A stretch of 40,745 bases of DNA from a virus. Both the position numbers and the translations under genes were made by a program. The notes under the pieces are model-generated. The model was not told the origin of the DNA, did not search any database, and was given only the letters and a program-made list of their open reading frames with translations. The stretch lies in the UHGV virus genome UHGV-0435673; one strand, written 5' to 3'. Position 1 is the stretch's first letter; the number at the start of each line of letters is the position of its first letter. Shown here piece after piece: positions 1-38,342 of this stretch.

Positions 1-1795
1 GTCGCCGGAAGAGGAACAGGCGGCTGAAGATGCCACAGTCTACATCAATCAGGTCGTCTTTGGGCGTCGGATGTTTCAGATCATCCACAATGTGCTGGCG
101 GATGGACTCTATCAGCGTGTCGGCTGGTGCATCGCACACGCGCCGAAGAAAGAGAAACAGCAAGTCGATCAGTACACCGGGCTGACTGAGCAGGAAGCCA
201 TAGCGCTTATCTCTCAATCTGGAATTTCTAGACCGGAAGAGGTCGAGAGCGTCAGCTATCCCGATCCGCAGTTCGGAACACTCTTTGATCTGACACTTCG
301 GACGACGCGGGAAGAGCGGGAGATACGGATCGATCCCATTCCTTCGGAAAGGGTCATCATCTCCGAAGATGCCGCCGATGTGGAGTCTGCACGGTTCGTC
401 GCGCACTGGGAAATCAAGACGGCCTCTGATCTGAGAAAAGAGGGATACTCACAGGCTCTTATTGACGAACTGCCCACGGAATCCGGAGATGATGAAATGC
501 CGGAAACGCGGGTGACTCGGGAAGTTAATGCCAGCAGTACCGATGCCCCGGAAGGTACGGGTGCGCTCAAGCGCTTCAAGATCTGGGAGGCGTGGACTGA
601 ATGCGATCTGAACGGCGACGGAATCGCCGAAAAAGTCAAGGTTACGTACTGCGGGGATGACAACAATATTGTCGTGCTGGATTTCGAAGAGTGGCCGCTG
701 TACCGCGCTCCGCTCTTCAATGCCTGTTCCCTGCCTCTGCCTCATGCCGTTGTTGGGCTGTGCCTTGGCGATCTGGTCATGGATCTTCAGTCGCTCAAGA
801 CTGAGATGACGCGGCAGTATCTTGATGGCCTCGCTTTCTCGAATCAAGCTGAAATAGTCGTAAGGACAGGGGCAGCAGGTGGGGAGATCGACATGGAATC
901 CCTCTTGTCTCGCGGACCCGGGAACGTCATCCGCGCAAAAGGTGATGCTGAGATCACCCCGCTTCCTGTCGTCACGTCTTCAGGGGAAGCACTGCAAGGC
1001 ATTGAGCTTGCCGACGGCATGACTGAACGCAGGACGGGGATCAGTTCCCGTACGCAGTCAATCCAAGCTGATACGCTCCAAAACACAGCTACCGGGGCCT
1101 CGATCATGGATGAGGCCGTGAACCAGCGGCTTGAGCTTATCGCCCGCGTCTTTGCCGAGATGTTCTTTAAGCCTTTGGGACGGTACGTCCTGCACCTCGT
1201 CCACAAGTACCACAATAAGCCAGTGCAGATACGGCTTAAAGGCCGCTTCATGGACTTTGATCCGCGCCGATGGGACCCCGATATGGATATCTCAGTAGCC
1301 GTTGGCCTTGGGACAGGGAACCGCCAGCGGCTCGTGGCGACGTACCAGGGCATTCTTGGCATACAACAGCAGATGATCACACAGCTTGGCAAGAATAGCC
1401 CGGTACGGCTCACAAACCTGATCTACACCTGCCATAAGATGGCTGAGGCTGCTGGTCTTGAGGCTCCTGAGCGTTTCTTCGGGACAGAGGAACAGGCTGC
1501 ACAAGCGGAACAGGCGATCATGAACGCTCCGGAACAACCTTCACCTGATATTCAGAAACTCCAGCTTGAGCAACAGAAGGCGCAGGCGAAACAACAGCTT
1601 GATGTCCAGAAAGCTCAAACGGAAGCGCAGCGGAAGGCCTATGAAACTCAGGCAAAAACCGCTCTGGAACGGCAGAAAGTGGAAGGTCAGCTTGCGTTGA
1701 AGGCGATGGAGCTTCAAGGCGAAAAGGAACTTGATGCCACACGGCTCATGATGGGCGAACGCGGGCCGGAACTGACAAACCTGCGGGGGGTGTGA
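1..1795 (+). CDS. Portal protein, C-terminal 598 codons. The ORF is open at the window start and continues from 40474..40745 if the contig is circular.
   Basis: No in-frame stop from nt 2. It follows terL at the other window end. Q/K/A-rich coiled C-terminus resembles P22-type portal barrels. Scaffold and capsid genes follow. Confidence 0.6.
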   Translation, partial: SPEEEQAAEDATVYINQVVFGRRMFQIIHNVLADGLYQRVGWCIAHAPKKEKQQVDQYTGLTEQEAIALISQSGISRPEEVESVSYPDPQFGTLFDLTLRTTREEREIRIDPIPSERVIISEDAADVESARFVAHWEIKTASDLRKEGYSQALIDELPTESGDDEMPETRVTREVNASSTDAPEGTGALKRFKIWEAWTECDLNGDGIAEKVKVTYCGDDNNIVVLDFEEWPLYRAPLFNACSLPLPHAVVGLCLGDLVMDLQSLKTEMTRQYLDGLAFSNQAEIVVRTGAAGGEIDMESLLSRGPGNVIRAKGDAEITPLPVVTSSGEALQGIELADGMTERRTGISSRTQSIQADTLQNTATGASIMDEAVNQRLELIARVFAEMFFKPLGRYVLHLVHKYHNKPVQIRLKGRFMDFDPRRWDPDMDISVAVGLGTGNRQRLVATYQGILGIQQQMITQLGKNSPVRLTNLIYTCHKMAEAAGLEAPERFFGTEEQAAQAEQAIMNAPEQPSPDIQKLQLEQQKAQAKQQLDVQKAQTEAQRKAYETQAKTALERQKVEGQLALKAMELQGEKELDATRLMMGERGPELTNLRGV

Positions 1796-8952: not shown

Positions 8953-9942
8953 ATGGGCGGTGGAAAAGGTAGAAGTGGTGGTTCCACCACGACAGTGCAG
9001 AAGGCCGATCCTTGGGAAGGTCAGCAACCCTATTTAGTCGGCGGGATACATATAAATGGCGTTCCGATTGCTGGCACTTTTTATGAAGCAAACAAACTTT
9101 ATCAAAACGGTCAGCTTGCACCTGAATACTATCCGGGGCAGACGGTTGCCGATCAGTCGCCGTGGACGCAACAGGCGCTCCAGATGCAGGCGGACAGGGC
9201 ACAGAATGGATCAGGGGTTATCAACTCCGCGACGGATGCGATTCAAGGTATCATGGGCGGATCGGGTATCACGGGCAATCAGGGATTACAGACGCTTAAT
9301 CAGATGGCGTCTTCTTCCGACTCGAACCCATACCTTGATGCTATGTACAACAGGGCGAACAATCAGGCGCAAGCCTCTCTGAACGCCAATTTTAGCGGAG
9401 CGGGCAGGTATGGATCTGGAGCACATGAGGCCGCATCCGCAGATGCCGCAAATAACCTAGCGACACAGCTTTACGGCGGGGCCTATGAATCAGATCAGAA
9501 CCGTCGTCTTTCCGCAGCACAGGGAGCGGGGCAACTCTACAATCAGGGTATTGGACAACAGATTCTTGGGTCCAATGTTGCGCAACAGCTAGGGAACCAA
9601 GCCTATACTGACGCTTCGGCCTTGTCTCAGGCTGGCGGAATCATGGACGACTACAACCAGCAAAAGATCAATGCGGATATTGATCGGTACAATTACAACG
9701 CGCAGCGCCCATTGAGTGCATTGAGCGCTTACAACCAGCTGATTCAGGGGAACTACGGCGGCACCAGTACCAGCACCGGGAAGCAATCCGGGGGGAGCAA
9801 CACGCTGGGAAGTGTTCTTGGTAGTGGGCTAACTGGGTATGGTATTGGTGCCGGATTATCTGGTTTAGCTGGCACGGCTGCTTTGACAAGTCCATGGGCT
9901 TTGGGAGGAGCCGCTCTTGGCGGCCTCCTCGGTCTTTTGTGA
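8953..9942 (+). CDS. Q/N/G-rich putative internal virion or ejection protein
   Basis: RBS AGGAGA. Repetitive Q/A/N-rich body. C-terminal Gly-zipper hydrophobic segment (GLSGLAGTAALTSPWALGGAALGGLLGLL). Confidence 0.35.
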   Translation: MGGGKGRSGGSTTTVQKADPWEGQQPYLVGGIHINGVPIAGTFYEANKLYQNGQLAPEYYPGQTVADQSPWTQQALQMQADRAQNGSGVINSATDAIQGIMGGSGITGNQGLQTLNQMASSSDSNPYLDAMYNRANNQAQASLNANFSGAGRYGSGAHEAASADAANNLATQLYGGAYESDQNRRLSAAQGAGQLYNQGIGQQILGSNVAQQLGNQAYTDASALSQAGGIMDDYNQQKINADIDRYNYNAQRPLSALSAYNQLIQGNYGGTSTSTGKQSGGSNTLGSVLGSGLTGYGIGAGLSGLAGTAALTSPWALGGAALGGLLGLL

Positions 9943-9950
9943 GGTGACGT

Positions 9951-11204
9951 ATGGCATTTTTCGGAAGCGGCTATTTCGGTCAGGGGTTCACTCCGGCGGA
10001 CATCCTTTTTGCACAGCAGAACCAGAAACAGCCGACAGCGGGGAGCTTTCAGGCGCCACAGCAACCTACAGGATCGTTTTTCGGAAGCAATCCGAATTTG
10101 GCACAAACTGGCGGACTTCTCAGCCTATTGGGGACTGATGGACAGCAAGAGAAACAGGGGCAGTCACAACAGGGCGGGACCCCTTCCACGACTTCAGCCT
10201 CGGCTCCGGGATCGTTCTTTGGCGGCAAGCGTGAGCCCTCTTTTGAAGAACAGGAGCGGGAATACTCCTCCATCCGGGATCAGGTCATGAAAGACCCCGG
10301 AAGCGCGGCACTCCTAGCTGGACTGTCCATTTTGAGCGCGAACAGGCCCAGAAACGGACGCACCCCGGGCCTTGGGGAGTTGGTCGGTGCCGGGGGCCTT
10401 GGGATGATTCAGGGGCTCGGGCAGATGCAGCAGGCGCAGGACGTGCGGCGTAAGCAACAGATGGACATGGAGATGAAACGGGCTGAACTGGCAAGCAAGC
10501 TAGGACCTAAATATGAAAAAGTTGGTAACCGCCTGCTCAGGACAAAACCTGATGGAACCGTTGATGTAGCGTATGAGGGAGAGCCTGAGCTTAGTGGAGA
10601 TGCTGCAAATCTTGCGATCATCCTTGGAAGGAATCCTACCGTCCAGGAGTTGATGGACTATAGGAAGAAAGGAGCATCTTCTGTCAATGTCAATACAGGA
10701 CTTCCTTTTGATCAGGCCACAAAAGCCGCAGGTGTACTGCAAGCCCAACAACAGCTTGAAAACATTATAAGTGGCCTTTTTGATGAAAATGGAAATTTCA
10801 AGCGTTCTACTGCGTTGGCGTCAATGATTCCAGGCACTGATGCCGCACAATACGATAAGCAGGCTACTCAAGCCCTTGAAGCTTGGCTCCGAGCAATGAC
10901 TGGCGCAGCTATCACAAAAGAAGAGCTAAATAGCTATCGTGATATGTACATGCCAAGGCCGTGGGACAGTGAAGAAGTGGCCAAAGACAAGATAACTCGC
11001 CTGAATGCTTTGTTCTCAAGCAGTTTGGATATGATGGGGAGCAAACTTCCTTCGTCAGCCCGCAAGCCTGATATTCAAGTAGAGTTTCCTAATGCTAAAC
11101 CTGCGTTGAATGGAAACGTGTCTGTCCGAGGGGCTGTAGGAGGTAAACGTGAAAAAACTCCTGCTGTCCCTGAACTTCCCGCCGGATTTGTGCTTAACAA
11201 CTAG
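9951..11204 (+). CDS. Putative internal virion or ejection protein
   Basis: 417 aa. Gly/Gln-rich N-terminus. Lies upstream of the giant virion protein. Confidence 0.35.
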   Translation: MAFFGSGYFGQGFTPADILFAQQNQKQPTAGSFQAPQQPTGSFFGSNPNLAQTGGLLSLLGTDGQQEKQGQSQQGGTPSTTSASAPGSFFGGKREPSFEEQEREYSSIRDQVMKDPGSAALLAGLSILSANRPRNGRTPGLGELVGAGGLGMIQGLGQMQQAQDVRRKQQMDMEMKRAELASKLGPKYEKVGNRLLRTKPDGTVDVAYEGEPELSGDAANLAIILGRNPTVQELMDYRKKGASSVNVNTGLPFDQATKAAGVLQAQQQLENIISGLFDENGNFKRSTALASMIPGTDAAQYDKQATQALEAWLRAMTGAAITKEELNSYRDMYMPRPWDSEEVAKDKITRLNALFSSSLDMMGSKLPSSARKPDIQVEFPNAKPALNGNVSVRGAVGGKREKTPAVPELPAGFVLNN

Positions 11205-11215
11205 GTGGTACTGCA

Positions 11216-14035
11216 ATGAGAACGGCATACAATCCTCAGACAAGAGAAGTCCTCGGGCTGAAAAATGGACAGTGGACAAAGTTACAAACGGCTAGCAACG
11301 ACAAGGGTGATATGCTCTATCTTGGGGATTCCGGATGGGAACCCCTGAACCTTGGTTCAGACTCTACGCCGGATCAGCCGCAACAGGGTGAAAAAAGCTT
11401 TTGGGAAAACGTCAGAGACGCTATCGGGATGCATGATCCGGGCCGCGCTTTCAGCCTTGGAAGCCGAAATGTCCTTGAAGGGCTGGGCAAGAGCGCAACG
11501 CTTGGCCTTGGTGATCCGGGCCGCATCATTTCTGACTGGATGGGCTTGGCGAAACCGGATACGGATGCCGAACGAATGCGCGGGGCGTTTATTGAGGGCG
11601 CAGCCGGAACGCTTCCTATGCTCGGCACGGGGGCTGTGATGCAAGGGGCAAAGGCTGCCCCAAAAATCGCGCAGTATCTGACCGCTTCACCCGCCTTGCA
11701 AGTTGCTGGTGACGCCTCGGCAAACTTGGCTTCTGAGGTTGCGCGCCAGTCAGGGGCAGGAGAGGGAGGACAGTTTGCGGCGGCTCTGGCGGGCGGTGTT
11801 GCACCGGGCGCGGCTTGGGCTCCTTTTCGTGTGGCTGGTCGTGCTATCGGAACAGGGATTACGGCCTTAGATGCCCTTTCCTCCGCAGGACAGAAAAAGA
11901 TTGCCGGGTCTACGCTGCGCCGCATGGCGACCACTCCTGAAGGTATTGAACGGGCAATACGGGAACGTATTCCCGCTTCCGAACTTGTCCCCGGAAGCGC
12001 TCCGACATTGGGCCAGATTGCCGAAGATCCCGGCATCGCCGCTCTTGAGCGCAGCCTGAAAGATACGGATACGCAGGGCGGCAGAATTACGAACCGATAC
12101 GGCGAACAGGAACAGGCTAGGCAAGCAGCTCTTGCTGACGTCTACAACCGCGCAAACCCTCGTGTAGCCGGACTACGTGCGGGCATTGATTCTGAATTGA
12201 GCGGAACGGCGATGTCCACGGATGCCTCGCAAGTTGGAAAAGATCTTCTTGAAGCCAGAAACGCTGGCGAAACAGCTTTCAAAAAACAGTTCGTGACTCC
12301 GGCCTATGAGTCTGTTGACCCGGAAGGGACGTCCCGTTTTCTTGTTCAGCCTATTCTTGATGACGCTAAAACATATGCCAATAAGATGTTCGGGCGTTAC
12401 CGTGTCCATTCACCAGACAGCGCGACGCAAAGACAAATAAACGCCATGCGGGAAGCTATGGACGCGGAAGGCGCAGTCCCTTTTTCAGAAATCAATCATT
12501 GGCGTTCCGCACTCAGCGAGGCCGCATTTAATGATGCCAAGGCCGGAGATTACCGACAGGCGGCAATGGCTAACCGTATCAAAGGCTTTCTCGACGGCTA
12601 CGTTGACGATATGTCATACAATGAGGCTCTGCGCGGACAACGCCCTCAAATCAACAGCCGTAGCCCTTTGTACAAAGAGGCGACACGGTACGCTGAACAA
12701 GCGGTAGGCAATGACCCTTTTTGGGATGATATGGCCGAAATAGCCAAGCGTGGCATTAATAAAGACGAGTTTGTCCGCCTGTTCGGGCGCCGTTCATTCG
12801 ATGATGTGCAGGCTGCATATCCAAACTTGATCCGCAAGAGCGGAACGCTCGATCCTTCTCAGCTTGGCGCTGATATGGTTTCCGCACGGGCTGGCGGATT
12901 TGAAACGGATTATGCGCCGCGTGACGCTACCGGATTCGTCAATATGATCGTGGACAGGTTCGGGCCACAAACCCAGACGCGCAAACAGCAGATAGCTACA
13001 TTGCGGGATCAGTACCTTGCGGAAAACCTTCCCGCACATACCGGACTCTCCCCAGAACAGGCTGAAAAATTCAGGGAAGCCAAGTCCGCAAACCGTGAGA
13101 TGAACCGTGCGTTTAGGGAGGGTCCCAACAAGGGATTGAATGCGACATACTCCGGACCAGAAAGTTCTGTTCCTAAAAGATATTTTCACGCAGGTGAAGG
13201 TTCCAAGGAAGATATTCAAACGTTCATGCGCGGCGTAGGGCGTGATCCGCAAGCCGTTGAAAATTTGAAAAGGTATGCTCTCTCTCAGGCTGCCGAATCT
13301 GCGGTAGGCAAGGGGAAGGGGCGGGCAACGTCTCAGGGGTTGAAGAATTGGATGTATGCGCACCGGAACGCCATTGATGAGGTGCCTGGGCTCCGCAAAG
13401 ATCTAAATGCCATGCTCCGCAATATCAATATTACGGAAGCGGCGGAACAAGGCCTTGATTCGGCTATTTCCCTTTCCAAAACGGGAGATCTCCGCGCCAA
13501 TGCCTTGATCAATAGCGATCTCTTTGATTGGCGCAAGGGTGGAACCTTCCGGGATCGCCTCATCTCTTCCGGGGCATTTGATGATCAGGATTTGTCCTCA
13601 CTCTCCAACGTCCGCGCGGATCTTGCTCGGGCACAACGGGCGGACAGGCTGGCGTCCACCTCGGGAAGTGCAACCGCGAAAAATCTTGCGACACAGCACA
13701 TTCTTGATCGCGCGTTAGGTGGAGATGTGGGGCGCACAGGGGGACCGACCGGGAAAACTCTGACGGATAACCTCATTGCCCGCGCTGCCAGCATTCCGGG
13801 AAATATTATTGGCGAGAAACTGCAAAAATGGGTTTACGGCGGTGCAGACAGTGCCGTCCGTGATTACCTGACGCAAGCCATGCTTGATCCCAACTATGCG
13901 CTTGAACTTCTCGGGCGTGCGAAACCAAAAGAAATTCCAGCGATTGGCAAGGTGTTGAAAGACATCAGGCGGGGTATGGCAATGACGGCTGGGCGTACTT
14001 CCCTTCTCGACCTCATTTCCCAGATGCAGGAGTAA
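11216..14035 (+). CDS. Large virion protein (939 aa), candidate ejection or injection protein
   Basis: Longest ORF. Lies at the end of the structural operon, as gp16/gp20-type genes do in short-tailed lambdoid phages. No tape-measure-like coiled coil seen. Confidence 0.45.
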   Translation: MRTAYNPQTREVLGLKNGQWTKLQTASNDKGDMLYLGDSGWEPLNLGSDSTPDQPQQGEKSFWENVRDAIGMHDPGRAFSLGSRNVLEGLGKSATLGLGDPGRIISDWMGLAKPDTDAERMRGAFIEGAAGTLPMLGTGAVMQGAKAAPKIAQYLTASPALQVAGDASANLASEVARQSGAGEGGQFAAALAGGVAPGAAWAPFRVAGRAIGTGITALDALSSAGQKKIAGSTLRRMATTPEGIERAIRERIPASELVPGSAPTLGQIAEDPGIAALERSLKDTDTQGGRITNRYGEQEQARQAALADVYNRANPRVAGLRAGIDSELSGTAMSTDASQVGKDLLEARNAGETAFKKQFVTPAYESVDPEGTSRFLVQPILDDAKTYANKMFGRYRVHSPDSATQRQINAMREAMDAEGAVPFSEINHWRSALSEAAFNDAKAGDYRQAAMANRIKGFLDGYVDDMSYNEALRGQRPQINSRSPLYKEATRYAEQAVGNDPFWDDMAEIAKRGINKDEFVRLFGRRSFDDVQAAYPNLIRKSGTLDPSQLGADMVSARAGGFETDYAPRDATGFVNMIVDRFGPQTQTRKQQIATLRDQYLAENLPAHTGLSPEQAEKFREAKSANREMNRAFREGPNKGLNATYSGPESSVPKRYFHAGEGSKEDIQTFMRGVGRDPQAVENLKRYALSQAAESAVGKGKGRATSQGLKNWMYAHRNAIDEVPGLRKDLNAMLRNINITEAAEQGLDSAISLSKTGDLRANALINSDLFDWRKGGTFRDRLISSGAFDDQDLSSLSNVRADLARAQRADRLASTSGSATAKNLATQHILDRALGGDVGRTGGPTGKTLTDNLIARAASIPGNIIGEKLQKWVYGGADSAVRDYLTQAMLDPNYALELLGRAKPKEIPAIGKVLKDIRRGMAMTAGRTSLLDLISQMQE

Positions 14036-14839: not shown

Positions 14840-15535
14840 TCATGAGCGCACCCCCTTCTCGATCTGGCTCATGATGCCCAGAAGGTGCCAGCCGGGATTG
14901 AAGCCCTCATAGAGTCCGGGCCTGCGCATTGAAAACCCCTCGCACAGCATTGAGAAAAGGCACTGGTGGATGGTCGAATGCAGCCCGGGACCCTCGCCGC
15001 CCGCAGTGAACGGAATCCGATACTTTCTGAGCAGGGTGTGGGTGACGTTGAACGTCACTTCCACAAGCCTGTCCTTGAGGTGTTCAAGGTCATTCCGCTT
15101 CCCGGCATACAGATCGTCAATCTCCCGCATGAGCCTGCGGCATTCTTCGACTGAGCACGGGAACGGGTCGGCGGCCAGGGCAGGGCGGCTGCGCCGGGCA
15201 AGCTCCTCCTCCATCGCGTTGAACGCCTCAATGTACGCCAGCTTGATCGCGAGGGCCTTCTTGCCCGTATAGCCCATGACCAGCAACATGAAGCCGTCGC
15301 GGTAAATGATGTACATGGGCTGAATCTTGCCCTGTTCATTGGTGTAGGAGGACTCCGAAAAATTGCGGAGTCTGAAATTTTGAGGAGTTGCGTTTAAGAG
15401 CGTCCGAATAGACCTCAACACGTCATCATGCCGCTTGTTGAAGTATTGGGCTACTGTACGAGAGGTGGTGGATGGGCGTCCGTTGTGAACAAAAACGGAC
15501 GGGACGGGATCGGGAAGCAAAAGGGCCTGTGCCAT
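14840..15535 (-). CDS. Rha-family phage regulatory protein (antirepressor-like)
   Basis: N-terminal region (VFVHNGRPSTTSRTVAQYFNKRHDDVLRSIRTL) matches the Rha family signature. Confidence 0.6.
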   Translation of the reverse strand: MAQALLLPDPVPSVFVHNGRPSTTSRTVAQYFNKRHDDVLRSIRTLLNATPQNFRLRNFSESSYTNEQGKIQPMYIIYRDGFMLLVMGYTGKKALAIKLAYIEAFNAMEEELARRSRPALAADPFPCSVEECRRLMREIDDLYAGKRNDLEHLKDRLVEVTFNVTHTLLRKYRIPFTAGGEGPGLHSTIHQCLFSMLCEGFSMRRPGLYEGFNPGWHLLGIMSQIEKGVRS

Positions 15536-15817
15536 AGTGAACTCCTTGATTTTTCTATTGCCCTTTCTGAAATAGAAAAGGCCGGGAGCTAGAAACCGTC
15601 AAGGAACGGCGGGCATATTCCCCCGAAGGGTATTCTATTAGCCCACTCCCGGCCTGAATAGCCGAATAAATACACCACTTCCAAGGTTTTCTATAGACCT
15701 TGACAGGGCATAAAAAGAGCCACTTTCAGGCAATGGCGACCTTCCTTGAGGAGTTTCTACGCTCCGTGAGGAAACCAAAGCATGAAAGCGGCTATGTTGT
15801 CAAGATAGGACTACAGG

Positions 15818-16465
15818 TTATCTGTTTTCTTTTTGATATGTTATTCCATTTGGTTGTATTTTTATTCCAATGAATTTTAGCTCTTCAGGAGTATACTCTG
15901 GTATCCTTATTTTTATTGATTTTGCTTTTCCTGATTTAATGTCATCCAATTTTTCAGTTTTTTCTTTCCTTGAATCAAGATAAACCTTATTTTTTTCTAA
16001 ATCATTCCAGTTTGGAAATTCTTTTGCATATTCTACAGTTATTGTATTATCAACCATAGTTGCTGAATAAAGGTTAACAAATTCTATTGTTACTTCTGAT
16101 CCTGTAGAGTATTTTCTAATATTCTCACAGGATACAGTAAATAATCCTCCACGACAAGAAATGATAGAAAATTTGCTTTCACTAGGATTCAATAAAGCTT
16201 GTTCTGGTAACTTAAAATCTAGTGTTTTAATACTTCTATCATAATAGTTATTCATAATTTTTTGCAACTCAAGAAAATCTTTTATACTTTTAATTTCTAC
16301 TTTTAATGATTCAACTTCTTTTTTCAATAATTCATTTTCTTTTTTGAGTTGTTCAACTTCAGTTCCAATTTCTCCAGCCTTATTTATATTGTCTAGTAGT
16401 TCAAAGGAAAAAGCATTTCCACACATGTATATGCAAAAAGCAAAAGTAAGAAGTACTTTTTTCAT
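15818..16465 (-). CDS. Secreted coiled-coil protein, AT-rich moron gene
   Basis: Sec signal peptide MKKVLLTFAFCIYMCGNAFS, heptad-rich segment (EVEQLKKENELLKKEVESLKVEIKSIK). AT-rich codon usage. 1 nt after the upstream lipoprotein gene. Confidence 0.5.
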   Translation of the reverse strand: MKKVLLTFAFCIYMCGNAFSFELLDNINKAGEIGTEVEQLKKENELLKKEVESLKVEIKSIKDFLELQKIMNNYYDRSIKTLDFKLPEQALLNPSESKFSIISCRGGLFTVSCENIRKYSTGSEVTIEFVNLYSATMVDNTITVEYAKEFPNWNDLEKNKVYLDSRKEKTEKLDDIKSGKAKSIKIRIPEYTPEELKFIGIKIQPNGITYQKENR

Positions 16466-16466
16466 G

Positions 16467-17171
16467 TTATTTGCTCACTTTTCGATATACTTTTTCAGAT
16501 TCTGAGGCAACATGATGGTAATCTGTTTCTTTAAATCCATCCTGTACCTTTGCAGAGTTTGAAACACGCTCTGCATATCTTTCCATTGCTTCTTTGGTAG
16601 CTTTTCCTATTGCTTCGGACAGTACTTGTGCACCATTACCACAGGCTCCTCCTGCTTCGCCTTCAGCTGTCTTTGTGGCACTTGCGATACTGTTTATCAA
16701 AATTTTGTTGTTAACGTCACGGACAACAAAGTCGAATGCGATATCTACATCGGCTCTTGAAGAAGCAGACCAAAATCCTGGGATAAAAACTATTCTTGGT
16801 TCAAAAGAAGTAAGTCTAACGAGGATGTATCCCTTTGCACCTTTTTCTATCATTTCATCATGTGTGGGAATAGATTCTTGTTCTATGACGTGTTCAAACA
16901 TAGCTTCAGTTGTTAGTCTGATTGAAGAGTCAAATGCACTATTTGTACCTATAGAAAATTTATGGGCACCACATTGATAAGATGAAGGTTTTACATCTTT
17001 CACAATAGTAGAAGCACTTTCATCTATAATCAATATAATAGTAGCTGGTATTTTACCATCATAAGAAGAATAAATATTTGTTGCTTGTGATGATGGTATT
17101 GCTGTTTTATAGGAACATCCAGCCATAGTAAAAGTAAGCATACCCAACAAAAGAAGCAAAATCCGTTTCAT
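16467..17171 (-). CDS. Lipoprotein, AT-rich moron gene
   Basis: Lipobox LTFTMAG-C after MKRILLLLLGM. Strong SD GGAGAGGGAGGGGAA upstream of the internal ATG. AT-rich. Confidence 0.55.
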   Translation of the reverse strand: MKRILLLLLGMLTFTMAGCSYKTAIPSSQATNIYSSYDGKIPATIILIIDESASTIVKDVKPSSYQCGAHKFSIGTNSAFDSSIRLTTEAMFEHVIEQESIPTHDEMIEKGAKGYILVRLTSFEPRIVFIPGFWSASSRADVDIAFDFVVRDVNNKILINSIASATKTAEGEAGGACGNGAQVLSEAIGKATKEAMERYAERVSNSAKVQDGFKETDYHHVASESEKVYRKVSK

Positions 17172-17258
17172 CATTTCCCCTCCCTCTCCATACGGAGAAT
17201 GTCTTTCTCCAGCCGTTACCAGAAAACCCATATGGACTCAATCAAAAAGGAGGTATCC

Positions 17259-17501
17259 ATGCCCGACTCGATCACGCGTTCCCCGATGGCCCCGATTTCC
17301 CCGAAAGAAGCCTCAGCCTACACCGGATACTCCGAGCGCACGCTGGCAAGCTGGCGCAGGGGCCGCAAAGAATGGGCTCCGGACAGCAAGGGGCCGCGCT
17401 ACGCCACCATGAATGGGAGAATCTGGTACCGCCGGGACTGGCTTGACGACTGGCTCGAATCCGTCTGGGCTCCGCATAACAGCTCGGAAAAGATGCAGTA
17501 A
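17259..17501 (+). CDS. AlpA/excisionase-family HTH DNA-binding protein (copy 1)
   Basis: SD AAAGGAGG. Core motif SPKEASAYTGYSERTLASWRRGRK...GPRYATMNGRIWYRRDWLDDWLES is typical of the AlpA/Xis family. Confidence 0.55.
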   Translation: MPDSITRSPMAPISPKEASAYTGYSERTLASWRRGRKEWAPDSKGPRYATMNGRIWYRRDWLDDWLESVWAPHNSSEKMQ

Positions 17502-17577: not shown

Positions 17578-18459
17578 ATGAGCGTTCAAGACTACTCGAC
17601 CAATCCAGACGACAATCTGACTATCAGCGGAATCAATATTGCCGAAGGAATGCCCCCCGGCCTCGTGAACAACGCAATTCGTCAGCTGATGTCTGATATT
17701 AAAGTCAATTCCACTGAGTTGGAAAATGGAAAGCTCTCGACTAGCGGCGGGACAGTGACTGGAAGTCTTTCGATCAAGAATATGCTTGATCTCATCAATG
17801 CCGCGCCAGCTACGGAACAAGAGTTAGGGCTTTTCATGCTCGACAAGAATGGAACGATCATGGGTGCCCATGATTTTGTGCATAATGTTAATAATATTAA
17901 AGCCACTCAGATGTATGCTCGAAACAGCGGCGGGTTGCTTTCTTCGCTTGGCGTTTATGTCGAAGAAGACGGAACGCGGTACACGTTGTCGTCACACAAC
18001 ATAATCATAACGAGCGATGTCGAGATTGGACGGTTATATGCTGACGGAGTGAGGCTCATAACATTTTCGGGAACAAAAAGCAGCCCAGGCCTTATGATGC
18101 GCTATTCCCCCGATAGCGGTGAGCTCTATCTTGACGGTAGGGCCGTTCACGGAAAGGCCGATACGGCAGTATATGCGGACAACGCCGGGACGCTTGGCGG
18201 CAAGGCTGAAAGTGCACTCTCCGTCGCTTTTGCAAGCGAGGCACAGAACAGCTACGGGCTCAAAGGCATGGACATGATCATCGCAAAACAAACGTACACG
18301 TTACCTGGGTACGGTACGTGGAAATACATGTATCTTATTGCTGACAGTGAACATTTTTATGATATGGTCATAGGCGAAGATCCGGGTGGAACCGTTTTGT
18401 CGGCGTCAGCTTGGGGGAGCTCCGCTTTCATGGACGGGATAGCTTTCAGAAGCGCATAG
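17578..18459 (+). CDS. Tail fibre protein (receptor-binding candidate)
   Basis: N-terminal ISGINIAEGMPPGLVNNAIRQLMSDIK, fibre-repeat-like NGKLSTSGGTVTGSL. A tail fibre assembly gene lies downstream. Confidence 0.55.
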   Translation: MSVQDYSTNPDDNLTISGINIAEGMPPGLVNNAIRQLMSDIKVNSTELENGKLSTSGGTVTGSLSIKNMLDLINAAPATEQELGLFMLDKNGTIMGAHDFVHNVNNIKATQMYARNSGGLLSSLGVYVEEDGTRYTLSSHNIIITSDVEIGRLYADGVRLITFSGTKSSPGLMMRYSPDSGELYLDGRAVHGKADTAVYADNAGTLGGKAESALSVAFASEAQNSYGLKGMDMIIAKQTYTLPGYGTWKYMYLIADSEHFYDMVIGEDPGGTVLSASAWGSSAFMDGIAFRSA

Positions 18460-18990: not shown

Positions 18991-19224
18991 ATGATTATCA
19001 TGTGTTATGACCGCATGACTCCGAAAGAGGCCGCAGCCTACCTTGGTTTTTCAACGTCAACGCTCGAAAAATGGCGCAGGGGCCGCAAAGTTTGGGGCGA
19101 ATCGAACCGTGGACCGCGCTATACCAGTTTGAACGGGAGGATTTGGTACCGGAAAGACTGGCTTGACGAGTGGCAGGATTCTGTTTTCGGCCTTCCCTCA
19201 CAACGCCTCACTGTTCCACAATGA
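18991..19224 (+). CDS. AlpA/excisionase-family HTH protein (copy 2, paralogue of 17259..17501)
   Basis: TPKEAAAYLGFSTSTLEKWRRGRK...GPRYTSLNGRIWYRKDWLDEW. Shares exact stretches with copy 1: 19 nt tggcgcaggggccgcaaag and 14 nt gactggcttgacga. Confidence 0.5.
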   Translation: MIIMCYDRMTPKEAAAYLGFSTSTLEKWRRGRKVWGESNRGPRYTSLNGRIWYRKDWLDEWQDSVFGLPSQRLTVPQ

Positions 19225-21832: not shown

Positions 21833-22055
21833 GACACATATTCTGACACATATTTAGAGTGCTTTTGCCACATTTTGACACATTTTGCTGAGGCTTGATA
21901 TAATAAATTCAATATGTTAATATGTAAACAATGCCCTGTACATGGGAATCATGCTTAAAACAACAGTGTGTAAAAGTTGTTTGTTAACCATTGGTTATTG
22001 ACGAACTGAACATCCATCTTTAAGTTGCCACATATTTTCTGCCACATATTTAGGT
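21833..22055. promoter_or_regulatory. Candidate attP region with repeated arm-type motifs (G/T)(A/C)CACAT(A)TTT
   Basis: GACACATATT, GACACATATTT, GCCACATTTT and GACACATTTT lie downstream of the int stop. GCCACATATTTT and GCCACATATTT lie inside the int 3' end. An AT-rich core sits between the two groups. Confidence 0.4.
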
Positions 22056-23089
22056 TCAGGGATAGCCTCAATTGCGGCAATTTTTTGAGAGTTGAGGACG
22101 TGCTGATAGTGTTTCAAAACCATTGTAAGGCTGGCGTGCCCCATGAGCTTTGCAACCGTCCCGATGTCTGCACCTGCGGCGATAGCTTCGGTAGCAAAGG
22201 CATGTCTCAGATCGTAGGGACGTATCTTTCTTGATATTCCAGCACGCCTGAGAGCTGCTTTCCATCCCTCATGTATGGTTCTAATGGGCTTTCCTCTGAA
22301 ATGGATAACTTGATTGAGTCCTAATTCTTTATCAGCATCACGCCACGACCGCAATTCATCTATCAATGTTTTTCTTATCGGGATATCACGGATGGGTTCT
22401 TTTCTATTTTTCTTTGCAGCATGTAGATGAATCACACTATTTTCAATGTCTACATCGGACCATTTTAAACTGAAAAGCTCTGATGGACCTACTCTAATAC
22501 CCATTTGTGAACCAAGTATGATCACGCGCCGCACATGTTCATTGGCGTGTGCGAATATCAAGGCAATTTCATGCTGTGTCGGTGGTACAAAATGTTCATA
22601 TTCAACATGCGGCAAAGTTGGGATTCTTGGCATCTCTCTGATGAGTTCATTTTGATATGCCCATCTAATTATGGAAATAACCGGACTTACATAACGCCTG
22701 ATAGTTGCTGTTTTGATTCTGCGTGATAGAAAATACTCGACGAGGGTTTTAAGTTTTGTACTATCAATCTCATGAATGGGGATATCACACATGAATGGCA
22801 TAGCCGGTTTCATATTTGCCAAATGTCTGTTTAATGCCTTTTCCGAAAAGTGTTTTTCTTTTAGAAATAAATAATATACGGACTCAAATGTGTGTTCCTG
22901 ATTCGTCTCAGAGACTTCGTCCTTACGGAATGAATCTCTTTCATACTTAAGCTGATACTTCTTGAGGGCATCTTGCTTCTTTGCTTCCTCCTCTGTTTCG
23001 ACGTAAAGTGACTCACGCTTGAGCGTAAAAGGGTTATTCCAGTACACTTCCCACGGCTTTTTACGGCCTTTCCTCTGTCTGATAGCCAT
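21995..23089 (-). CDS. int: Tyrosine integrase (site-specific recombinase)
   Basis: C-terminal catalytic region IRPYDLRHAFATEAIAAGADIGTVAKLMGHASLTMVLKHYQHV carries the R..H..R..Y signature. Start set at the internal MAIRQRKG just after the xis stop. Confidence 0.75.
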   Translation of the reverse strand: MAIRQRKGRKKPWEVYWNNPFTLKRESLYVETEEEAKKQDALKKYQLKYERDSFRKDEVSETNQEHTFESVYYLFLKEKHFSEKALNRHLANMKPAMPFMCDIPIHEIDSTKLKTLVEYFLSRRIKTATIRRYVSPVISIIRWAYQNELIREMPRIPTLPHVEYEHFVPPTQHEIALIFAHANEHVRRVIILGSQMGIRVGPSELFSLKWSDVDIENSVIHLHAAKKNRKEPIRDIPIRKTLIDELRSWRDADKELGLNQVIHFRGKPIRTIHEGWKAALRRAGISRKIRPYDLRHAFATEAIAAGADIGTVAKLMGHASLTMVLKHYQHVLNSQKIAAIEAIPEPKYVAENMWQLKDGCSVRQ

Positions 23090-23127
23090 ACTGAATAGCT
23101 CCTGAGCAAAGGAGGCCGCTCCAGCTG

Positions 23128-23427
23128 CTACTGGACGGCCCCCATATTGAACTCTGCTAAAAGTTCCTTGGCGGATTTTCCGATGACGCACCCTGATGTT
23201 TTGGTCTGTCTTCGTCGCCTTGGAACTCCTGCCTTTGCTTGAGCCTCAGCATGTAATGTGTCGATCACCGTCATAACGGCCCGACGATGCCAGCGCAAGC
23301 CGTTTCCGCGTCCACGTCCCAGATCGACAGGCTGCACGCCGTGGGAGCGTAGCAAGTTGAGTGAACGTGTAATCCCCATTCCCATGAGTTCGGAGGCCTG
23401 TTCTGTAGTCAAAAGTGTTGGCTCCAT
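23128..23427 (-). CDS. Excisionase/AlpA-like HTH protein upstream of int
   Basis: LLTTEQASELMGMGITRSLNLLRSHGVQPVDLGRGRGNGLRWHRRAV is an HTH followed by the wing motif, as in AlpA/Xis. Adjacent to int. Confidence 0.5.
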   Translation of the reverse strand: MEPTLLTTEQASELMGMGITRSLNLLRSHGVQPVDLGRGRGNGLRWHRRAVMTVIDTLHAEAQAKAGVPRRRRQTKTSGCVIGKSAKELLAEFNMGAVQ

Positions 23428-31067: not shown

Positions 31068-31268
31068 TTAAGGTACTAATGGATTAATATTCATATTAGA
31101 TAGTTCGGTGATATTTTTATTTGTAAAATCAACTTGTTGAATAGGGTTTGTCTTGATGCCCATATTTTTTAAAATTAACATCATTTCATGATGATGTTTC
31201 AATGCTGGATTGTTTTCTATATTTTTAAGTAATAATGACATTTTATAATGCTTTTTGTCGATTTTCAT
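31068..31268 (-). CDS. 66-aa AT-rich small protein, partner of the Clp-fold protease
   Basis: Start codon overlaps the protease stop (ATG at 31268). K/N/I-rich. Confidence 0.4.
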   Translation of the reverse strand: MKIDKKHYKMSLLLKNIENNPALKHHHEMMLILKNMGIKTNPIQQVDFTNKNITELSNMNINPLVP

Positions 31269-32149
31269 TAGAGTAAACTCCCATTAGTCATTTCTCTAGT
31301 ATGTAAAAATAATTGATAGTTATATTTTGATGAAAAGTCAATCGCAAGTCTATTATATTCTTTTACTAATCTATATAATTTAAGGTCGTCTGAATAATCT
31401 TCAATCTTTAGCTTTAGATCGTCTTGAAGAGTTTTTATTCCTATATGTCTTCCATGTATATGCCAATGAGCATTATCACCTAATATTCTAGCTATTTCTT
31501 CAGCTCTATGCTCTTTTTCTTTAAGTGTGACTTCGGTATCTGTTTTACTATGAATTGTCCAGTCTTTAAATTTATAATTTACGAGCCATTTTTTTAATAG
31601 CGTTACGGTTATATTTCGTGCTTGTTGATAAAAATTTAAATCAGCAAGATTTAAATTTAAAGCCATTTGTAACTCTACTGGACTTATGGGGTTATTAGAA
31701 TCTTTATTTAATGATTTTTTACATATTGCATCAAATTGATCTAAATACCCTTGTGCAGGAACCCATTGTCCATTAGACAATACTTGAGGATCTATAGGGC
31801 CTAATGATGAGGCAAAATTCATATATATTTTGTCGCCAGACATGCAAAGAATAGTACCCGCTGAGTATGCATATTCATGTACAATGAAATATACTTCATC
31901 ATAGAACCTACGCATCACCTCAACCATTATCTCAGCCATTTCTACACTGCCGCCATTTGTTGTTAAATTGACAGCAAGAGATTTATGTTTTTTCTTTCTA
32001 GCTAATTTTTCAAATTCAGTGGTAAAGAATGTTCTGTGGTTAGGGTGAATACCACCATAAAACAAAAAAACATCAGACTGGAGATGTTCTTCTAGTTTAA
32101 TACAATAATTATTCAAAGCTTCATATGCAACTTTATCAACTGGACCCAT
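31268..32149 (-). CDS. Clp-fold serine protease of the S49/SDH (SppA-like) type with a 110-aa C-terminal extension
   Basis: LFYGGIHPN...LTTNGGSVEMAEIMVEVM and HEYAYSAGTILCMSGDKIYMNFASSLGPIDPQ fit the ClpP/SppA fold. Very AT-rich versus the flanks. Confidence 0.6.
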   Translation of the reverse strand: MGPVDKVAYEALNNYCIKLEEHLQSDVFLFYGGIHPNHRTFFTTEFEKLARKKKHKSLAVNLTTNGGSVEMAEIMVEVMRRFYDEVYFIVHEYAYSAGTILCMSGDKIYMNFASSLGPIDPQVLSNGQWVPAQGYLDQFDAICKKSLNKDSNNPISPVELQMALNLNLADLNFYQQARNITVTLLKKWLVNYKFKDWTIHSKTDTEVTLKEKEHRAEEIARILGDNAHWHIHGRHIGIKTLQDDLKLKIEDYSDDLKLYRLVKEYNRLAIDFSSKYNYQLFLHTREMTNGSLL

Positions 32150-32221: not shown

Positions 32222-32875
32222 CTAAACAAGCTGCCAAGTCCAAACGACTTTCCCAATAATGATGTTGTCGTATCCCTCATTAGAAACTTTCTGTGGTTTC
32301 CATCTGGGATTGTCTGAATGGAGGATAATATTACCATCCTCATCTTGCATAACTCTTTTAACAACCAAACCAAATGGGGGACGCTGTACAAGGTAAATGC
32401 CGCCGTCCTCTAGTTCGTCGTCAAGAGGGATAACACCTACATAAGCCCCTTTTAAGATTGTAGGTTCCATACTGTCGCCAGTAACTTTAACGGCACGAAC
32501 ATCGGGAAGATTATACTGAGGGAGAACAGGGATCATATTTTCTGGAGCGGTAGAAAAAAATTCAGCTGGTAGTCCGGCACCTGCTTCTTCAAAGACAGGT
32601 ATCTCATGTAAGTTGTCCCCTGTTACGTTTTCAGTAGGAGAGTGACAGGCCATACGACGCATTACAGGATACCTTTCTTCATCCGGGAAAATCACCAATG
32701 CCCCCATAGCTGACAATATTTTTGATACCTTATCGAGCCCAAGTTGCTGGGCTTTGACCCCTAAAGCACGCGACAAGTTCGCCTGACTGACGCCACATTT
32801 TTGAGCAAATGCAGCTATCTGGCGTTGATCTGAAATGTCCCTCAACCGAGCCATGAGTTTTTCTTCTAGTTCCAT
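32222..32875 (-). CDS. CI-like repressor (HTH plus S24 LexA-like autopeptidase)
   Basis: HTH IAAFAQKCGVSQANLSRALG. C-terminal VTGDSMEPTILKGAYVGV...GGIYLV...VKRV with Ser/Lys dyad context. Alternative start at 32938. Confidence 0.7.
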   Translation of the reverse strand: MELEEKLMARLRDISDQRQIAAFAQKCGVSQANLSRALGVKAQQLGLDKVSKILSAMGALVIFPDEERYPVMRRMACHSPTENVTGDNLHEIPVFEEAGAGLPAEFFSTAPENMIPVLPQYNLPDVRAVKVTGDSMEPTILKGAYVGVIPLDDELEDGGIYLVQRPPFGLVVKRVMQDEDGNIILHSDNPRWKPQKVSNEGYDNIIIGKVVWTWQLV

Positions 32876-32967
32876 ACGTTCCTGCATACGATACTGAGGA
32901 CAAAAAGTCATCTTTCGTAAATGTAATTTTACTTGCATATAGATACGTATATGTATATACTTACGCC
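32876..32967. promoter_or_regulatory. OR-like divergent operator-promoter between cI and cro
   Basis: ATACGTAT (32943-32950), TATATGTATATA (32948-32959), variant ATACGATA (32886-32893). TTGCAT-17 nt-TATACT hexamers end 5 nt before the cro ATG. Confidence 0.45.
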
Positions 32968-33465: not shown

Positions 33466-33909
33466 ATGAATACCCAAGATTATAACACGTTGACGGAAGT
33501 TATCGAGGCCATGATCGATGAAGGCAAAAAGCCGATCAAGGCCATCGCCGCCGAGATCGGCAAGCCGTATCCGACTCTCAAGCGTGAGCTGAACCCGGCT
33601 GACGACGGCGCGAAGCTCGGAGCGGACGCACTACTCGGCATTATGGCCTCCTGTGGCTCAATCGCGCCCTTGGAATGGCTGGCGGACAGGCTCGGTTATG
33701 TCGTGAAGCCCAAGGAATGGGCAGAGCCAGACAAGAAAACATGGCCAGAAGAATGCGTTGATGACGCCGTGTGTGGCGGAAAGATGAATATGCTTATGCG
33801 GGAAAAAGCGCATCCGTCCATCGTCTCCAAGGCTGCGGAAGAACGGAAGGACGAGATAGACCAGACGAACACTCGGTATAGGCGAGATTACAACCAAGCG
33901 AGGCAGTAA
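33466..33909 (+). CDS. Putative early regulatory protein (CII position)
   Basis: 147 aa. RBS AAGGAAAA. Second gene of the rightward operon. Confidence 0.3.
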   Translation: MNTQDYNTLTEVIEAMIDEGKKPIKAIAAEIGKPYPTLKRELNPADDGAKLGADALLGIMASCGSIAPLEWLADRLGYVVKPKEWAEPDKKTWPEECVDDAVCGGKMNMLMREKAHPSIVSKAAEERKDEIDQTNTRYRRDYNQARQ

Positions 33910-37498: not shown

Positions 37499-37900
37499 AT
37501 GGGCAATTTCCATTTTTCCACCAGATCCCTCCGCAACCTTTCCGGGGTGCACCCGAATCTGATCGCCGTGGTTGGGCTGGCGCTCTCTCAGAGCGTCGTG
37601 GACTTTACCGTGGTGGAAGGGCTGCGGGATATCGAGACACAGCGTCAGAACGTCTCCAAGGGCGTCTCTCAGACCATGAACTCCCGTCATCTCAAGCAAG
37701 ACGACGGTTTTGGTCATGCCGTGGATCTCTATCCCTACTTTGACGGCTCAGTACAAGTAGAAGCGCCGGAAGAGGCTTTTCGGGGCATCGCTTACGCTAT
37801 GCAGTCCGCCGCCGATACGCTCGGCATCCGCATCACATGGGGCGGCTCTTGGAAGTCTTTCGTCGATATGCCGCACTTTCAGTACGAGGGGGTGAAGTGA
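37499..37900 (+). CDS. Endolysin, M15-family L-alanyl-D-glutamate or D-Ala-D-Ala peptidase type
   Basis: Zn-ligand pattern SRHLKQDDGFGHAVDL...DMPHFQ. About 133 aa. Followed by a holin. Confidence 0.65.
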   Translation: MGNFHFSTRSLRNLSGVHPNLIAVVGLALSQSVVDFTVVEGLRDIETQRQNVSKGVSQTMNSRHLKQDDGFGHAVDLYPYFDGSVQVEAPEEAFRGIAYAMQSAADTLGIRITWGGSWKSFVDMPHFQYEGVK

Positions 37901-38112
37901 TGACCACGACAAAAACCTTTTGGGCGGGGCTTGTAACTGCCCTTGCCGGGCTTCTCAGCATCTTCGGCATCGATGTGTCCGGCGATACGCAAGCCGCTAT
38001 CGTCAACGGCATTTCCGCTATTGCTACGGTGGGGGGTGCGGTTGTCGCCGCCATTTCCGCATGGCGCAATAACCGCAAAAATTCTGATGCCGAAGAAGAA
38101 AAGAAGGCGTGA
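37900..38112 (+). CDS. Holin (two TM segments, charged C-terminus)
   Basis: FWAGLVTALAGLLSIF and AIATVGGAVVAAISAW TMs, tail RNNRKNSDAEEEKKA. ATG overlaps the endolysin stop. Confidence 0.5.
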   Translation: MTTTKTFWAGLVTALAGLLSIFGIDVSGDTQAAIVNGISAIATVGGAVVAAISAWRNNRKNSDAEEEKKA

Positions 38113-38342
38113 GCGTGTCCCGTGTCGTTGAAGCTATCGCTATCATCCTCATGTACGGCTACCGCTGGCTTGAAAGGCTGTCTCCGGATCGGGCTCAGGC
38201 TTTCCGCGATTCTCTGCGTGATGACCCTCTGCGCGTGCTCATGCAGCAAACCGGGGGCAAGCCTGCCGATCCCATCTACGCCTACTCTGACAAGTCAAAA
38301 GATCGTGGTGCTGGACGGGGTGAGGGGGTGGTGGATCGATGA
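38109..38342 (+). CDS. Spanin-region ORF (i-spanin-like?), uncertain
   Basis: Short N-terminal hydrophobic segment AIAIILMYGY. Overlaps a +1-frame lipoprotein-like ORF. Confidence 0.25.
   Translation: MSVSRVVEAIAIILMYGYRWLERLSPDRAQAFRDSLRDDPLRVLMQQTGGKPADPIYAYSDKSKDRGAGRGEGVVDR

Follow-up and report, generated by a model that had tools for sequence, protein, structure and literature searches.

This study concerns two adjacent minus-strand genes in a 40,745-nucleotide stretch of the UHGV virus genome UHGV-0435673 (the whole stretch is called the window). The first gene encodes a lipoprotein and the second a secreted coiled-coil protein, referred to below as the partner. Among described proteins, the partner comes closest to SadB of Salmonella, a trimeric lipoprotein of the inner membrane whose coiled coil spans nine heptads and which bears three MATH-like domains; it improves the surface display of SadA, an adhesin that is a trimeric autotransporter, and has been proposed to bind its three unfolded chains; the E. 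coli relative YajI has no known function (PMC3953254). For the lipoprotein, the closest comparison is provided by PqiC and XCC0632. Both assemble into octameric toroids within the outer membrane, in its inner leaflet, and the PqiB coiled coil is received there (PMC10897342). As for exclusion by mobile elements, the P22 prophage expresses SieA, which resides in the inner membrane and blocks the conduit formed by ejection proteins (PMC10883804), and TraT is a ring-forming outer-membrane lipoprotein that serves exclusion by plasmids (PMC11733297).

We found that the window represents a temperate, podovirus-like phage of Bilophila wadsworthia and that the pair is of a known kind, i.e., a prophage moron for envelope proteins located in a sie/immI slot. 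It belongs to none of the Llp, Cor, TraT, SieA or spanin groups. What is new are the protein families used, their combination and their linkage to the small RNA family sRNA-Xcc1, of which no description was found in the literature searched. Judged by analogy, the pair is most likely a lysogenic-conversion envelope module that the prophage would express to change or protect its host. The features of the locus are:

17175-17258, divergent intergenic region of 84 nt between the lipoprotein gene and an HTH_17 gene, the sole place for a promoter of the minus-strand operon
16467-17174, minus strand, lipoprotein gene (235 aa), lipobox LTFTMAG/C with Cys20 and Ser at +2
15818-16465, minus strand, secreted SadB/YajI (DUF3251) family gene (215 aa), with signal peptide, coiled coil (residues ~23-75) and beta-sandwich
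15810-16310, minus strand, variable cassette in the partner gene (distal coiled coil and beta-sandwich), ~50% nucleotide identity between the window and the sister prophage L007
15690-15817, minus strand, structured 3' untranslated region, with a terminator-like hairpin and U-run at 15737-15719
15572-15654, minus strand, sRNA-Xcc1 (RF02221), full-length, scoring 66.7 bits (gathering score 53)
14840-15535, minus strand, Rha-family regulatory gene (PF09669, E 1.6e-30)

Structure and surroundings of the two-gene locus

Two minus-strand open reading frames (ORFs) occupy the locus, one at 16467-17231 in its longest form and the other at 15818-16465. The TAA stop of the lipoprotein gene (16469-16467) and the ATG of the partner gene (16465) are 1 base apart, the junction reading ...AAATAA-C-ATGAAAAAA..., which confirms the arrangement proposed in an earlier reading of this DNA made from its letters only (the sequence-only reading). 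That reading had placed the lipoprotein start at 17231. This position marks only the longest ORF, and the credible start is instead the ATG at 17174 (MMKRILLLLLGMLTFTMAGC), which GGAGGGG precedes by a few bases and which yields the 235 aa that independent gene calls return on seven of seven related contigs. The partner gene has a weak Shine-Dalgarno (SD) sequence, which, together with the 1-nt spacing, favours coupled translation as far as the sequence allows us to judge, and the pairing is retained in every copy of this prophage lineage.

The GC content of the lipoprotein gene (36.7%) and the partner gene (26.9%) is far below that of the window (52.5%), and the 1357-nt block that they form ranks last in GC of 788 equal-sized windows, for which the mean is 0.524 and the sd 0.052; this agrees with the AT-richness noted in the sequence-only reading. 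Third-position GC (GC3) is 0.23 and 0.15, respectively, compared with about 0.5-0.75 elsewhere, and the drop in GC matches the extent of both reading frames. That this temperate podovirus-like phage acquired the low-GC, two-gene operon horizontally is well supported. Morons in the sense of Hendrix are recognized by a deviant composition and by their presence in some related phages and absence from others, and both were found; the polymorphism is seen in the related phage L032, which carries the lipoprotein gene only, and in other prophages that carry it in other slots. As for transcription signals of its own, which a moron would have, the terminator-like hairpin and the sRNA-Xcc1 stem with its U-run lie downstream, and no promoter was recognised upstream. 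Just ahead of the ribosome-binding site of the lipoprotein gene lies a small hairpin (17185-17198).

The same prophage was found integrated in human-gut metagenome contigs, where the product of the host dnaA gene beside it is identical to B. wadsworthia DnaA. In the window, portal, scaffold and a DNA-ejection-protein homologue sit upstream of the pair in a podovirus-like manner. The order of ejection proteins, immunity-type genes and tailspike or fibre follows that of P22-like phages, which makes the earlier comparison with the P22 sieA/immI position reasonable. Like sieA and immI, the pair occupies a slot between ejection-protein and fibre genes and lies beside an antirepressor-type gene, with no sequence relationship to P22 sieA/immI or P1 immI. 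The sequence-only reading had located it between Rha and the fibre gene and next to the latter. Rha is indeed its neighbour on one side; on the other an 80-aa HTH_17 gene (17259-17501) separates the operon from the fibre, so that adjacency to the fibre gene holds with one small gene interposed.

Downstream of the pair, the 131 nt after the partner stop codon (15690-15820) fold with a minimum free energy (MFE) of -50.7 kcal/mol, a stability that 0 of 200 shuffled controls reached (z -5.46), and this stretch may be more than a terminator, e.g., a processing site or stabiliser. The sRNA-Xcc1 element follows, its closing stem (GGCCGGGAG/CUCCCGGCC) leading into a U-run and the whole element ending 37 nt upstream of the Rha start codon. 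In six genomic contexts sRNA-Xcc1 is positioned 3' of one or more envelope genes and upstream of genes of the Rha/AntA type; besides the window, copies were located in L007 (5506-5590), L032 (8801-8884), L012 (8669-8751), L014 (5118-5200), L016 (8672-8754), L024 (1574-1656) and L008 (3835-3923), the last of which is sub-threshold at 48 bits and lies between a lipoprotein gene and AntA. The closing stem shows compensatory changes across the copies and, with its U-run, looks like a terminator. An inverted repeat (15571-15588/15542-15559) would alternatively allow the 3' arm of sRNA-Xcc1 to pair with the Rha SD sequence. This suggests, by analogy, a c4/sar-like riboregulator of the antirepressor, a role that is not described for the family. 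The literature places the family upstream of symE in integron cassettes of Xanthomonas and, in APSE phages, upstream of an ORF6N gene.

The order of envelope gene, sRNA-Xcc1 and antirepressor-type gene recalls P22 sieA/immI and P1 immI (c4 RNA-icd-ant). As in these, a small structured RNA is found here just upstream of an antirepressor-type gene, and expression from the prophage would be expected; in contrast to them, the RNA belongs to the sRNA-Xcc1 family, not to sar or c4, and its regulatory role in this locus is proposed by analogy. We infer on these grounds that the sRNA/Rha region may represent an immI-like unit whose strand also carries, upstream, the envelope genes; such an organization would provide for expression in the lysogen.

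Families of the two proteins

Analysis of the export signals agreed with the proposed combination of a lipoprotein and a Sec-secreted coiled-coil protein, since a PS51257-type lipobox ends at Cys20 in the former and a signal peptidase I site is followed by unbroken heptads in the latter. The further statement that neither protein resembles anything did not hold: profile matches place the partner in the SadB/YajI family, and structure prediction gives the lipoprotein a PqiC/XCC0632/LptE/PelC fold.

Sec/Lsp processing of the lipoprotein is well supported, and Ser at +2 suggests sorting to the outer membrane, going by E. coli rules only. The mature protein is globular, 216 aa in length, and carries conserved Cys68 and Cys178 and a FEPRxxFIPGFWS motif. 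A conserved Cys pair is present in each of the two mature proteins, as expected of periplasmic proteins, and no further hydrophobic segment (KD19>1.6) was detected in either of them; P22 SieA, in turn, resides in the inner membrane by membrane-spanning helices, and only its position is analogous. The lipoprotein family is small, as an iterated search returned only 24 clusters among 5.8 billion proteins, and every member with an intact N-terminus is a lipoprotein; the two cysteines and the motif are common to the family. A confident AlphaFold2 model calculated on the family alignment (pLDDT 85, pTM 0.76) has PqiC, XCC0632, LptE, PelC, CsgG and HpaA as structural neighbours, and the predicted PqiC/XCC0632/LptE/PelC fold is well supported. 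Lipoproteins of the PqiC/LptE/PelC fold are located at the periplasmic face of the outer membrane, where they form rings or plug or collar envelope-spanning machines.

The family profile had no significant match among PDB sequences, and PF03886 (ABC_trans_aux, DUF330) was matched at E<=1 by 0 of the 24 members, one of which bears the JGI name "ABC-type uncharacterized transport system auxiliary subunit". No MCE/PqiAB or ABC genes adjoin any member, the chromosomal copy P0022 included, and neither the hidden Markov model (HMM) match nor the LptD partnership typical for LptE was found, nor are there Lpt neighbours in any locus. Assignment to PF03886 or to the LptE family is therefore not supported. 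One identical cluster member is called "DUF4969" in NCBI nr, a name that the Pfam scan did not reproduce. Sequence identity to PqiC and XCC0632 (ABC_trans_aux) and to the wider LptE/PelC/CsgG fold is 9% or less. Beyond what these proteins have, the lipoprotein possesses two more conserved cysteines and is prolonged at its C-terminus by a long helical extension. Pel and curli genes, like MCE/PqiAB and Lpt genes, adjoin no family member, and the family as a whole is mostly prophage-borne. Besides the fold, a likeness lies in the coiled coil: PqiC-type proteins collar a periplasmic one, and the operon partner of the lipoprotein is a coiled-coil protein.

On contigs of sufficient length the lipoprotein family sits mostly in prophages. 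Outside this lineage, it occurs in at least four other prophage backgrounds, adjoining CI/AntA, Bro-N/HicAB or Rha. In L032 the lipoprotein gene stands alone between Rha and a putative fibre-like gene of 255 aa, which has no family match and owes its assignment to position only. L008 carries it between AntA and a gene of 236 aa without Pfam match, repressor-like only by position and by reading of the sequence. In L012-14 and L016 (a Mailhella metagenome-assembled genome, MAG) the neighbours are Bro-N and HicAB, and in L015 AbiJ and tail genes are close. The GC content of the gene lies below that of its flanks in nearly all prophage contexts, and the family behaves as a movable prophage gene. 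The earlier description of the locus as cargo is thereby upheld, both for the compositionally foreign two-gene unit and for the mobility of the lipoprotein family. A genome scan with a four-sequence alignment led to Mailhella and Syntrophaceae MAGs, scans of viral contigs to only two near-identical contigs; Megablast against phage and E. coli collections matched nothing, and Foldseek against viral structures gave nothing meaningful (TM 0.35 or less).

The partner possesses a 13-residue uncharged core in its signal peptide and an A-F-S/F signal peptidase I site with cleavage after Ser20, and a lipobox, judged by a PS51257-type pattern, is absent. Its heptad register is unbroken from residue 23 to about 75 (~7 heptads), with an Asn (N44) at a core "a" position, and has left a trace in the DNA as a 21-nt periodic repeat at 16289-16360. 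The beta-sandwich that follows contains the conserved Cys104 and Cys113. As a single sequence, the partner does not reach PF11622 (DUF3251). An exhaustive profile search pooled 308 representatives, mostly 190-215 aa, and 20 of 51 sampled relatives match PF11622 directly. Against the PDB, the profile of the 51-member family detected SadB (4C47, E 2e-23) and YajI (2JWY, 2.4e-7), and a profile of only the window protein and two close relatives detected SadB 4C47 at E 3.9e-4 over residues 41-210. The partner retains the SadB/YajI architecture of an N-terminal coiled coil followed by a MATH-like beta-sandwich, and its assignment as a periplasmic member of the SadB/YajI (DUF3251) family is, at the level of sequence, well supported.

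A lipobox, often with Asp at +2, is present in 29 of the 51 family members. The partner and the majority of its ~10 closest relatives have none, and for this reason we place the partner in an anchorless subgroup, in which the coiled coil begins 2-3 residues past the signal peptidase I site; a conserved motif, F-E/D-L-L/F-D-N, marks this beginning. Thus, the partner shares with SadB (Salmonella, PDB 4C47) and YajI (E. coli, PDB 2JWY) the coiled coil right past the processing site and the MATH-like beta-sandwich. It differs in being, by prediction, a soluble periplasmic protein with no inner-membrane anchor, and in having about seven heptads instead of the nine of SadB. Moreover, it is encoded by a phage, in a gene translationally coupled to that of a lipoprotein, cassette exchange affects its C-terminal domain, and it has no link to an autotransporter, a gene for which was found neither in the window nor in any related locus.

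In another element, a SadB-like relative adjoins a repressor-like HTH/S24 gene (both Pfam matches weak) and a P4 cII-like gene. We also observed solitary chromosomal genes for anchorless SadB-like proteins (P0030, P0031) on Desulfovibrionaceae-like contigs (L025-L028), in conserved synteny with a gene encoding an RRM_1 RNA-binding protein and with GC below that of the flanks.

Comparison with the sister prophage L007 divides the partner gene in two. Sliding identity between the window and L007 amounts to 90-100% throughout the lipoprotein gene and over the initial ~150 nt of the partner gene, and similarity resumes past the partner stop codon; at the protein level, partner residues 1-52 are nearly identical and overall identity is 50%. 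From this profile it follows that the C-terminal two-thirds of the partner form an exchangeable cassette, whereas the lipoprotein and the N-terminal coiled coil travel together. L024 provides what may be a second, non-homologous pairing of this kind: an unrelated 226-aa lipoprotein gene without Pfam match (94-774, plus strand) precedes an anchorless SadB-like gene (P0029) and sRNA-Xcc1 on a contig of 41% GC.

Possible roles of the pair

T5 Llp, phi80/N15 Cor and F-plasmid TraT resemble the lipoprotein, itself predicted to sort to the outer membrane, in being outer-membrane lipoproteins of mobile elements, encoded close to receptor-recognition genes. Llp and Cor are well under 100 aa, in contrast to the 216 aa of the mature lipoprotein. 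No sequence match to these proteins was found in PHROG, Pfam or PADLOC, and the presence of a second, secreted subunit sets the pair further apart; the lack of a match in these collections and in NCBIfam argues against Llp/Cor membership. As for TraT, neither its HMM match nor its decameric ring with alpha-helical membrane barrel was found, and the lipoprotein fold is only distantly TraT-like.

We tentatively regard the pair as an envelope module of the lysogen that may give superinfection exclusion at the outer membrane or in the periplasm, a reading drawn largely from analogy and held with less than even confidence. The operon would be transcribed from the prophage together with sRNA-Xcc1, on the strand opposite the virion genes. 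The lipoprotein would assemble beneath the outer membrane into a ring, and the anchorless partner, made in coupled amounts, would be held there by its conserved N-terminal coiled coil, docking as the PqiB coiled coil does in the PqiC collar, so that the lipoprotein would replace the missing lipid anchor. The exchangeable beta-sandwich domains could then bind a target that is exposed to the periplasm or passes through it, for which an incoming phage's needle or ejection-protein conduit is a candidate, as is the side of its receptor that faces the periplasm; the outcome would be superinfection exclusion to the benefit of the lysogen. The exchange of the partner cassette behind an unchanged lipoprotein gene and partner N-terminus looks, in the sequences, like a signature of specificity and speaks for this reading. 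In its most specific form, which we consider a long shot, a PqiC-like lipoprotein ring under the outer membrane would tether an anchorless SadB-like protein whose exchangeable MATH-like domains capture, in the periplasm, the unfolded ejection proteins or the needle of incoming podoviruses. The module itself would be transcribed in lysogens as the leader of an immI-like unit, with sRNA-Xcc1, a family that has had no function so far, as riboregulator. If true, the pair would be a new kind of superinfection-exclusion machine and would open a first way to the function of the YajI/SadB (DUF3251) family other than through adhesin export.

A number of observations weigh against superinfection exclusion by a two-protein complex. 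At E<=1, neither protein reaches a Pfam, PHROG, NCBIfam or PADLOC family beyond signal-peptide and coiled-coil noise, the AlphaFold2 model of the partner is of low confidence (pLDDT 56), and the only characterised member of the SadB/YajI family, SadB, is a helper of adhesin export and not an anti-phage protein. An HMM scan of all loci compared found the pairing of this lipoprotein with DUF3251 nowhere outside the prophage lineage, lipoprotein homologues standing alone in all other backgrounds and SadB-like relatives elsewhere being solitary (chromosomal or in an immunity-type region) or paired with an unrelated lipoprotein. In L004 (9350-9999; contig k141_160590, a circular-looking phage copy) an apparent frameshift splits the lipoprotein gene while the partner is intact, which argues against an obligate complex; the split 169-aa form is present on two contigs (cluster member P0204). 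A sigma-70 consensus scan recognised no minus-strand promoter in the 84-nt upstream region, and cross-context alignment revealed no conservation of the upstream regions among the differing genomic contexts of the lipoprotein gene; expression of the operon from the prophage is, therefore, an assumption. Lastly, in seven related loci the partner allele does not covary with the allele of the fibre or with that of a large putative ejection protein (939 aa, or 672 + 143 aa). The fibre allele varies among relatives while the partner protein stays identical, and a fibre-specific, receptor-masking link is thus not indicated.

It is possible, though less probable than exclusion, that the pair brings about lysogenic conversion to the benefit of the host and has no anti-phage role. 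The partner would then aid the export or folding of a trimeric surface protein of Bilophila, e.g., an adhesin, and the lipoprotein would stabilise the outer membrane or a route of lipid or polymer export, the gain being better adhesion, or better tolerance of bile or serum, in the gut. The prophage morons Bor and Lom set a precedent for a host-benefit envelope role. The structural neighbours of the lipoprotein (PqiC, LptE, PelC, CsgG, HpaA) are all parts of envelope biogenesis or transport or adhesin-type lipoproteins, and apparently non-phage chromosomal copies of both families are found in Desulfovibrionaceae-like genomes. The sole functional data for the SadB/YajI family, namely the improved display of SadA, point the same way (PMC3953254). 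Yet, the gene tables list no autotransporter, MCE, Pel, curli or Lpt gene near any copy, adhesin-linked SadB homologues were found only in Enterobacterales (bioRxiv 10.64898/2026.01.22.700529), and the partner does without the inner-membrane anchor that SadB uses. The swap of a binding domain between near-identical prophages also fits a target in an arms race better than a housekeeping client.

We give about the same modest chance to the view that the two are independent cargo genes that merely adjoin, each acting alone, whatever it does. The 1-nt spacing would then merely mark where a SadB-like gene inserted behind a lipoprotein moron that was there earlier; this view overlaps with both functional readings. 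The solitary lipoprotein gene in the same slot of L032 and in other prophages, the solitary SadB-like genes elsewhere and the broken lipoprotein gene beside an intact partner in L004 are all in its favour, and the difference in GC (37% vs. 27%) suggests separate acquisitions. However, the 1-nt spacing and the weak SD of the second gene favour coupled translation, and the recombination seen in L007 spared the lipoprotein gene together with the N-terminal coiled coil of the partner. Moreover, the SadB-like gene of L024 is also preceded by a lipoprotein gene, albeit an unrelated one, and the loss of the lipid anchor in the subgroup invites a replacement tether.

Orphan immunity genes against toxins are often carried on mobile elements. 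That the pair encodes periplasmic immunity proteins of this type, directed against toxins of type VI secretion systems (T6SS), of contact-dependent inhibition (CDI) or against bacteriocins, would suit the periplasmic or lipoprotein location of both products, their mobility, the low GC and the swapped specificity domain of the partner. We nonetheless consider it very improbable, as every locus lacks toxin and secretion-system genes in its vicinity, Pfam and NCBIfam yielded no likeness to known immunity families, and a PqiC-like ring-former fold and a coiled coil with MATH-like domains are unlike known periplasmic immunity proteins.

A spanin-like pair that fuses the membranes at lysis, suggested by the superficial likeness of a lipoprotein plus a coiled-coil protein and by a weak match (E 0.0067) that only the coiled-coil region of the partner has with an Rz-like spanin PHROG, was rejected with near certainty because the phage carries a separate lysis cassette at 37499-38654, and also in view of the location of the pair on the strand opposite the late genes, the globular 216-aa lipoprotein in place of a short proline-rich o-spanin, the cleavable signal of the partner in place of an N-terminal membrane anchor, the SadB/YajI membership of the partner and the presence of the lipoprotein alone in other prophages.

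Neighbouring modules and implications

The remaining features of the phage, in the order of its modules, are:

38835-40474, small and large terminase, followed by portal, scaffold and head proteins
8953-14035, DNA-ejection-protein homologue and two large proteins, which come after the head proteins
17259-17501, plus strand, HTH_17/excisionase-like gene (80 aa; phrog_66, 1.8e-5; HTH_17 weak), divergent from the pair and heading the fibre module
17578-18459, fibre gene (293 aa), with a Phage_tail_APC chaperone
18991-19224, plus strand, HTH_17 paralogue (HTH_17, 9.6e-7)
21995-23191, integrase
32222-32938, S24 CI-like repressor
33466-33909, CII-like gene
37499-38654, plus strand, lysis cassette, directly ahead of the terminase genes
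37499-37900, plus strand, Peptidase_M15_4 endolysin, overlapping the holin-like ORF
37837-38112, plus strand, holin-like ORF with two transmembrane (TM) segments
38122-38403, plus strand, 93-aa protein with an L-C-A-C lipobox
38367-38654, plus strand, 95-aa protein with TM segment and coiled coil

From Rha onward, the gene order is the pair, the HTH_17 gene, the fibre, the chaperone and the second HTH_17 gene. The lipobox protein and the TM/coiled-coil protein of the lysis cassette probably represent an o-spanin/i-spanin pair in unusual order.

The two paralogous HTH_17/excisionase-like genes flank the fibre and chaperone cassette, which is exchanged among otherwise near-identical prophages (including the L001, L003 and L007 regions) and exists in versions of 293 aa with Phage_tail_APC, 216 aa (Gp53-like_C) with 118 aa, and 281 aa with 130 aa. 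The conserved HTH gene may be a recombination linker or a late regulator of this cassette. The largest putative ejection or internal virion protein (11216-14035, plus strand) has 939 aa in the window, L003 and L006, and is replaced by genes for 672 and 143 aa in L001, L002, L004, L005 and L007 (12431-14883 in L001). This swap is a second mosaic point, adjoining the cargo slot.

We also noticed a second low-GC island (31068-32149, minus strand; GC3 0.20-0.25) directly downstream of the gene for the CI-like S24 repressor. It holds a 293-aa protein resembling ClpP/SDH-type serine proteases (phrog_11747, E 2.8e-56; PF01972) and a 66-aa ORF, and its location, which is that of lambda rexAB, makes it a candidate prophage-expressed defence or abortive-infection moron.

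B. wadsworthia is a bile-tolerant, H2S-producing pathobiont of the gut. Which phages can infect a lysogen is decided by envelope proteins of prophages, and these can also alter the surface of the host; to our knowledge, no such protein is known for this species, whose phage biology is almost undescribed. The partner provides an anchorless, phage-borne member of the SadB/YajI family, in which YajI still lacks a known function although its structure has been solved since 2007, and the lipoprotein defines a small, undescribed and mostly prophage-borne family with a predicted PqiC/LptE fold. The recurrent order of envelope gene, sRNA-Xcc1 and Rha/AntA suggests a testable role for an orphan small RNA family, as well as a general slot in which temperate phages of Desulfobacterota may park cargo for expression in the lysogen.

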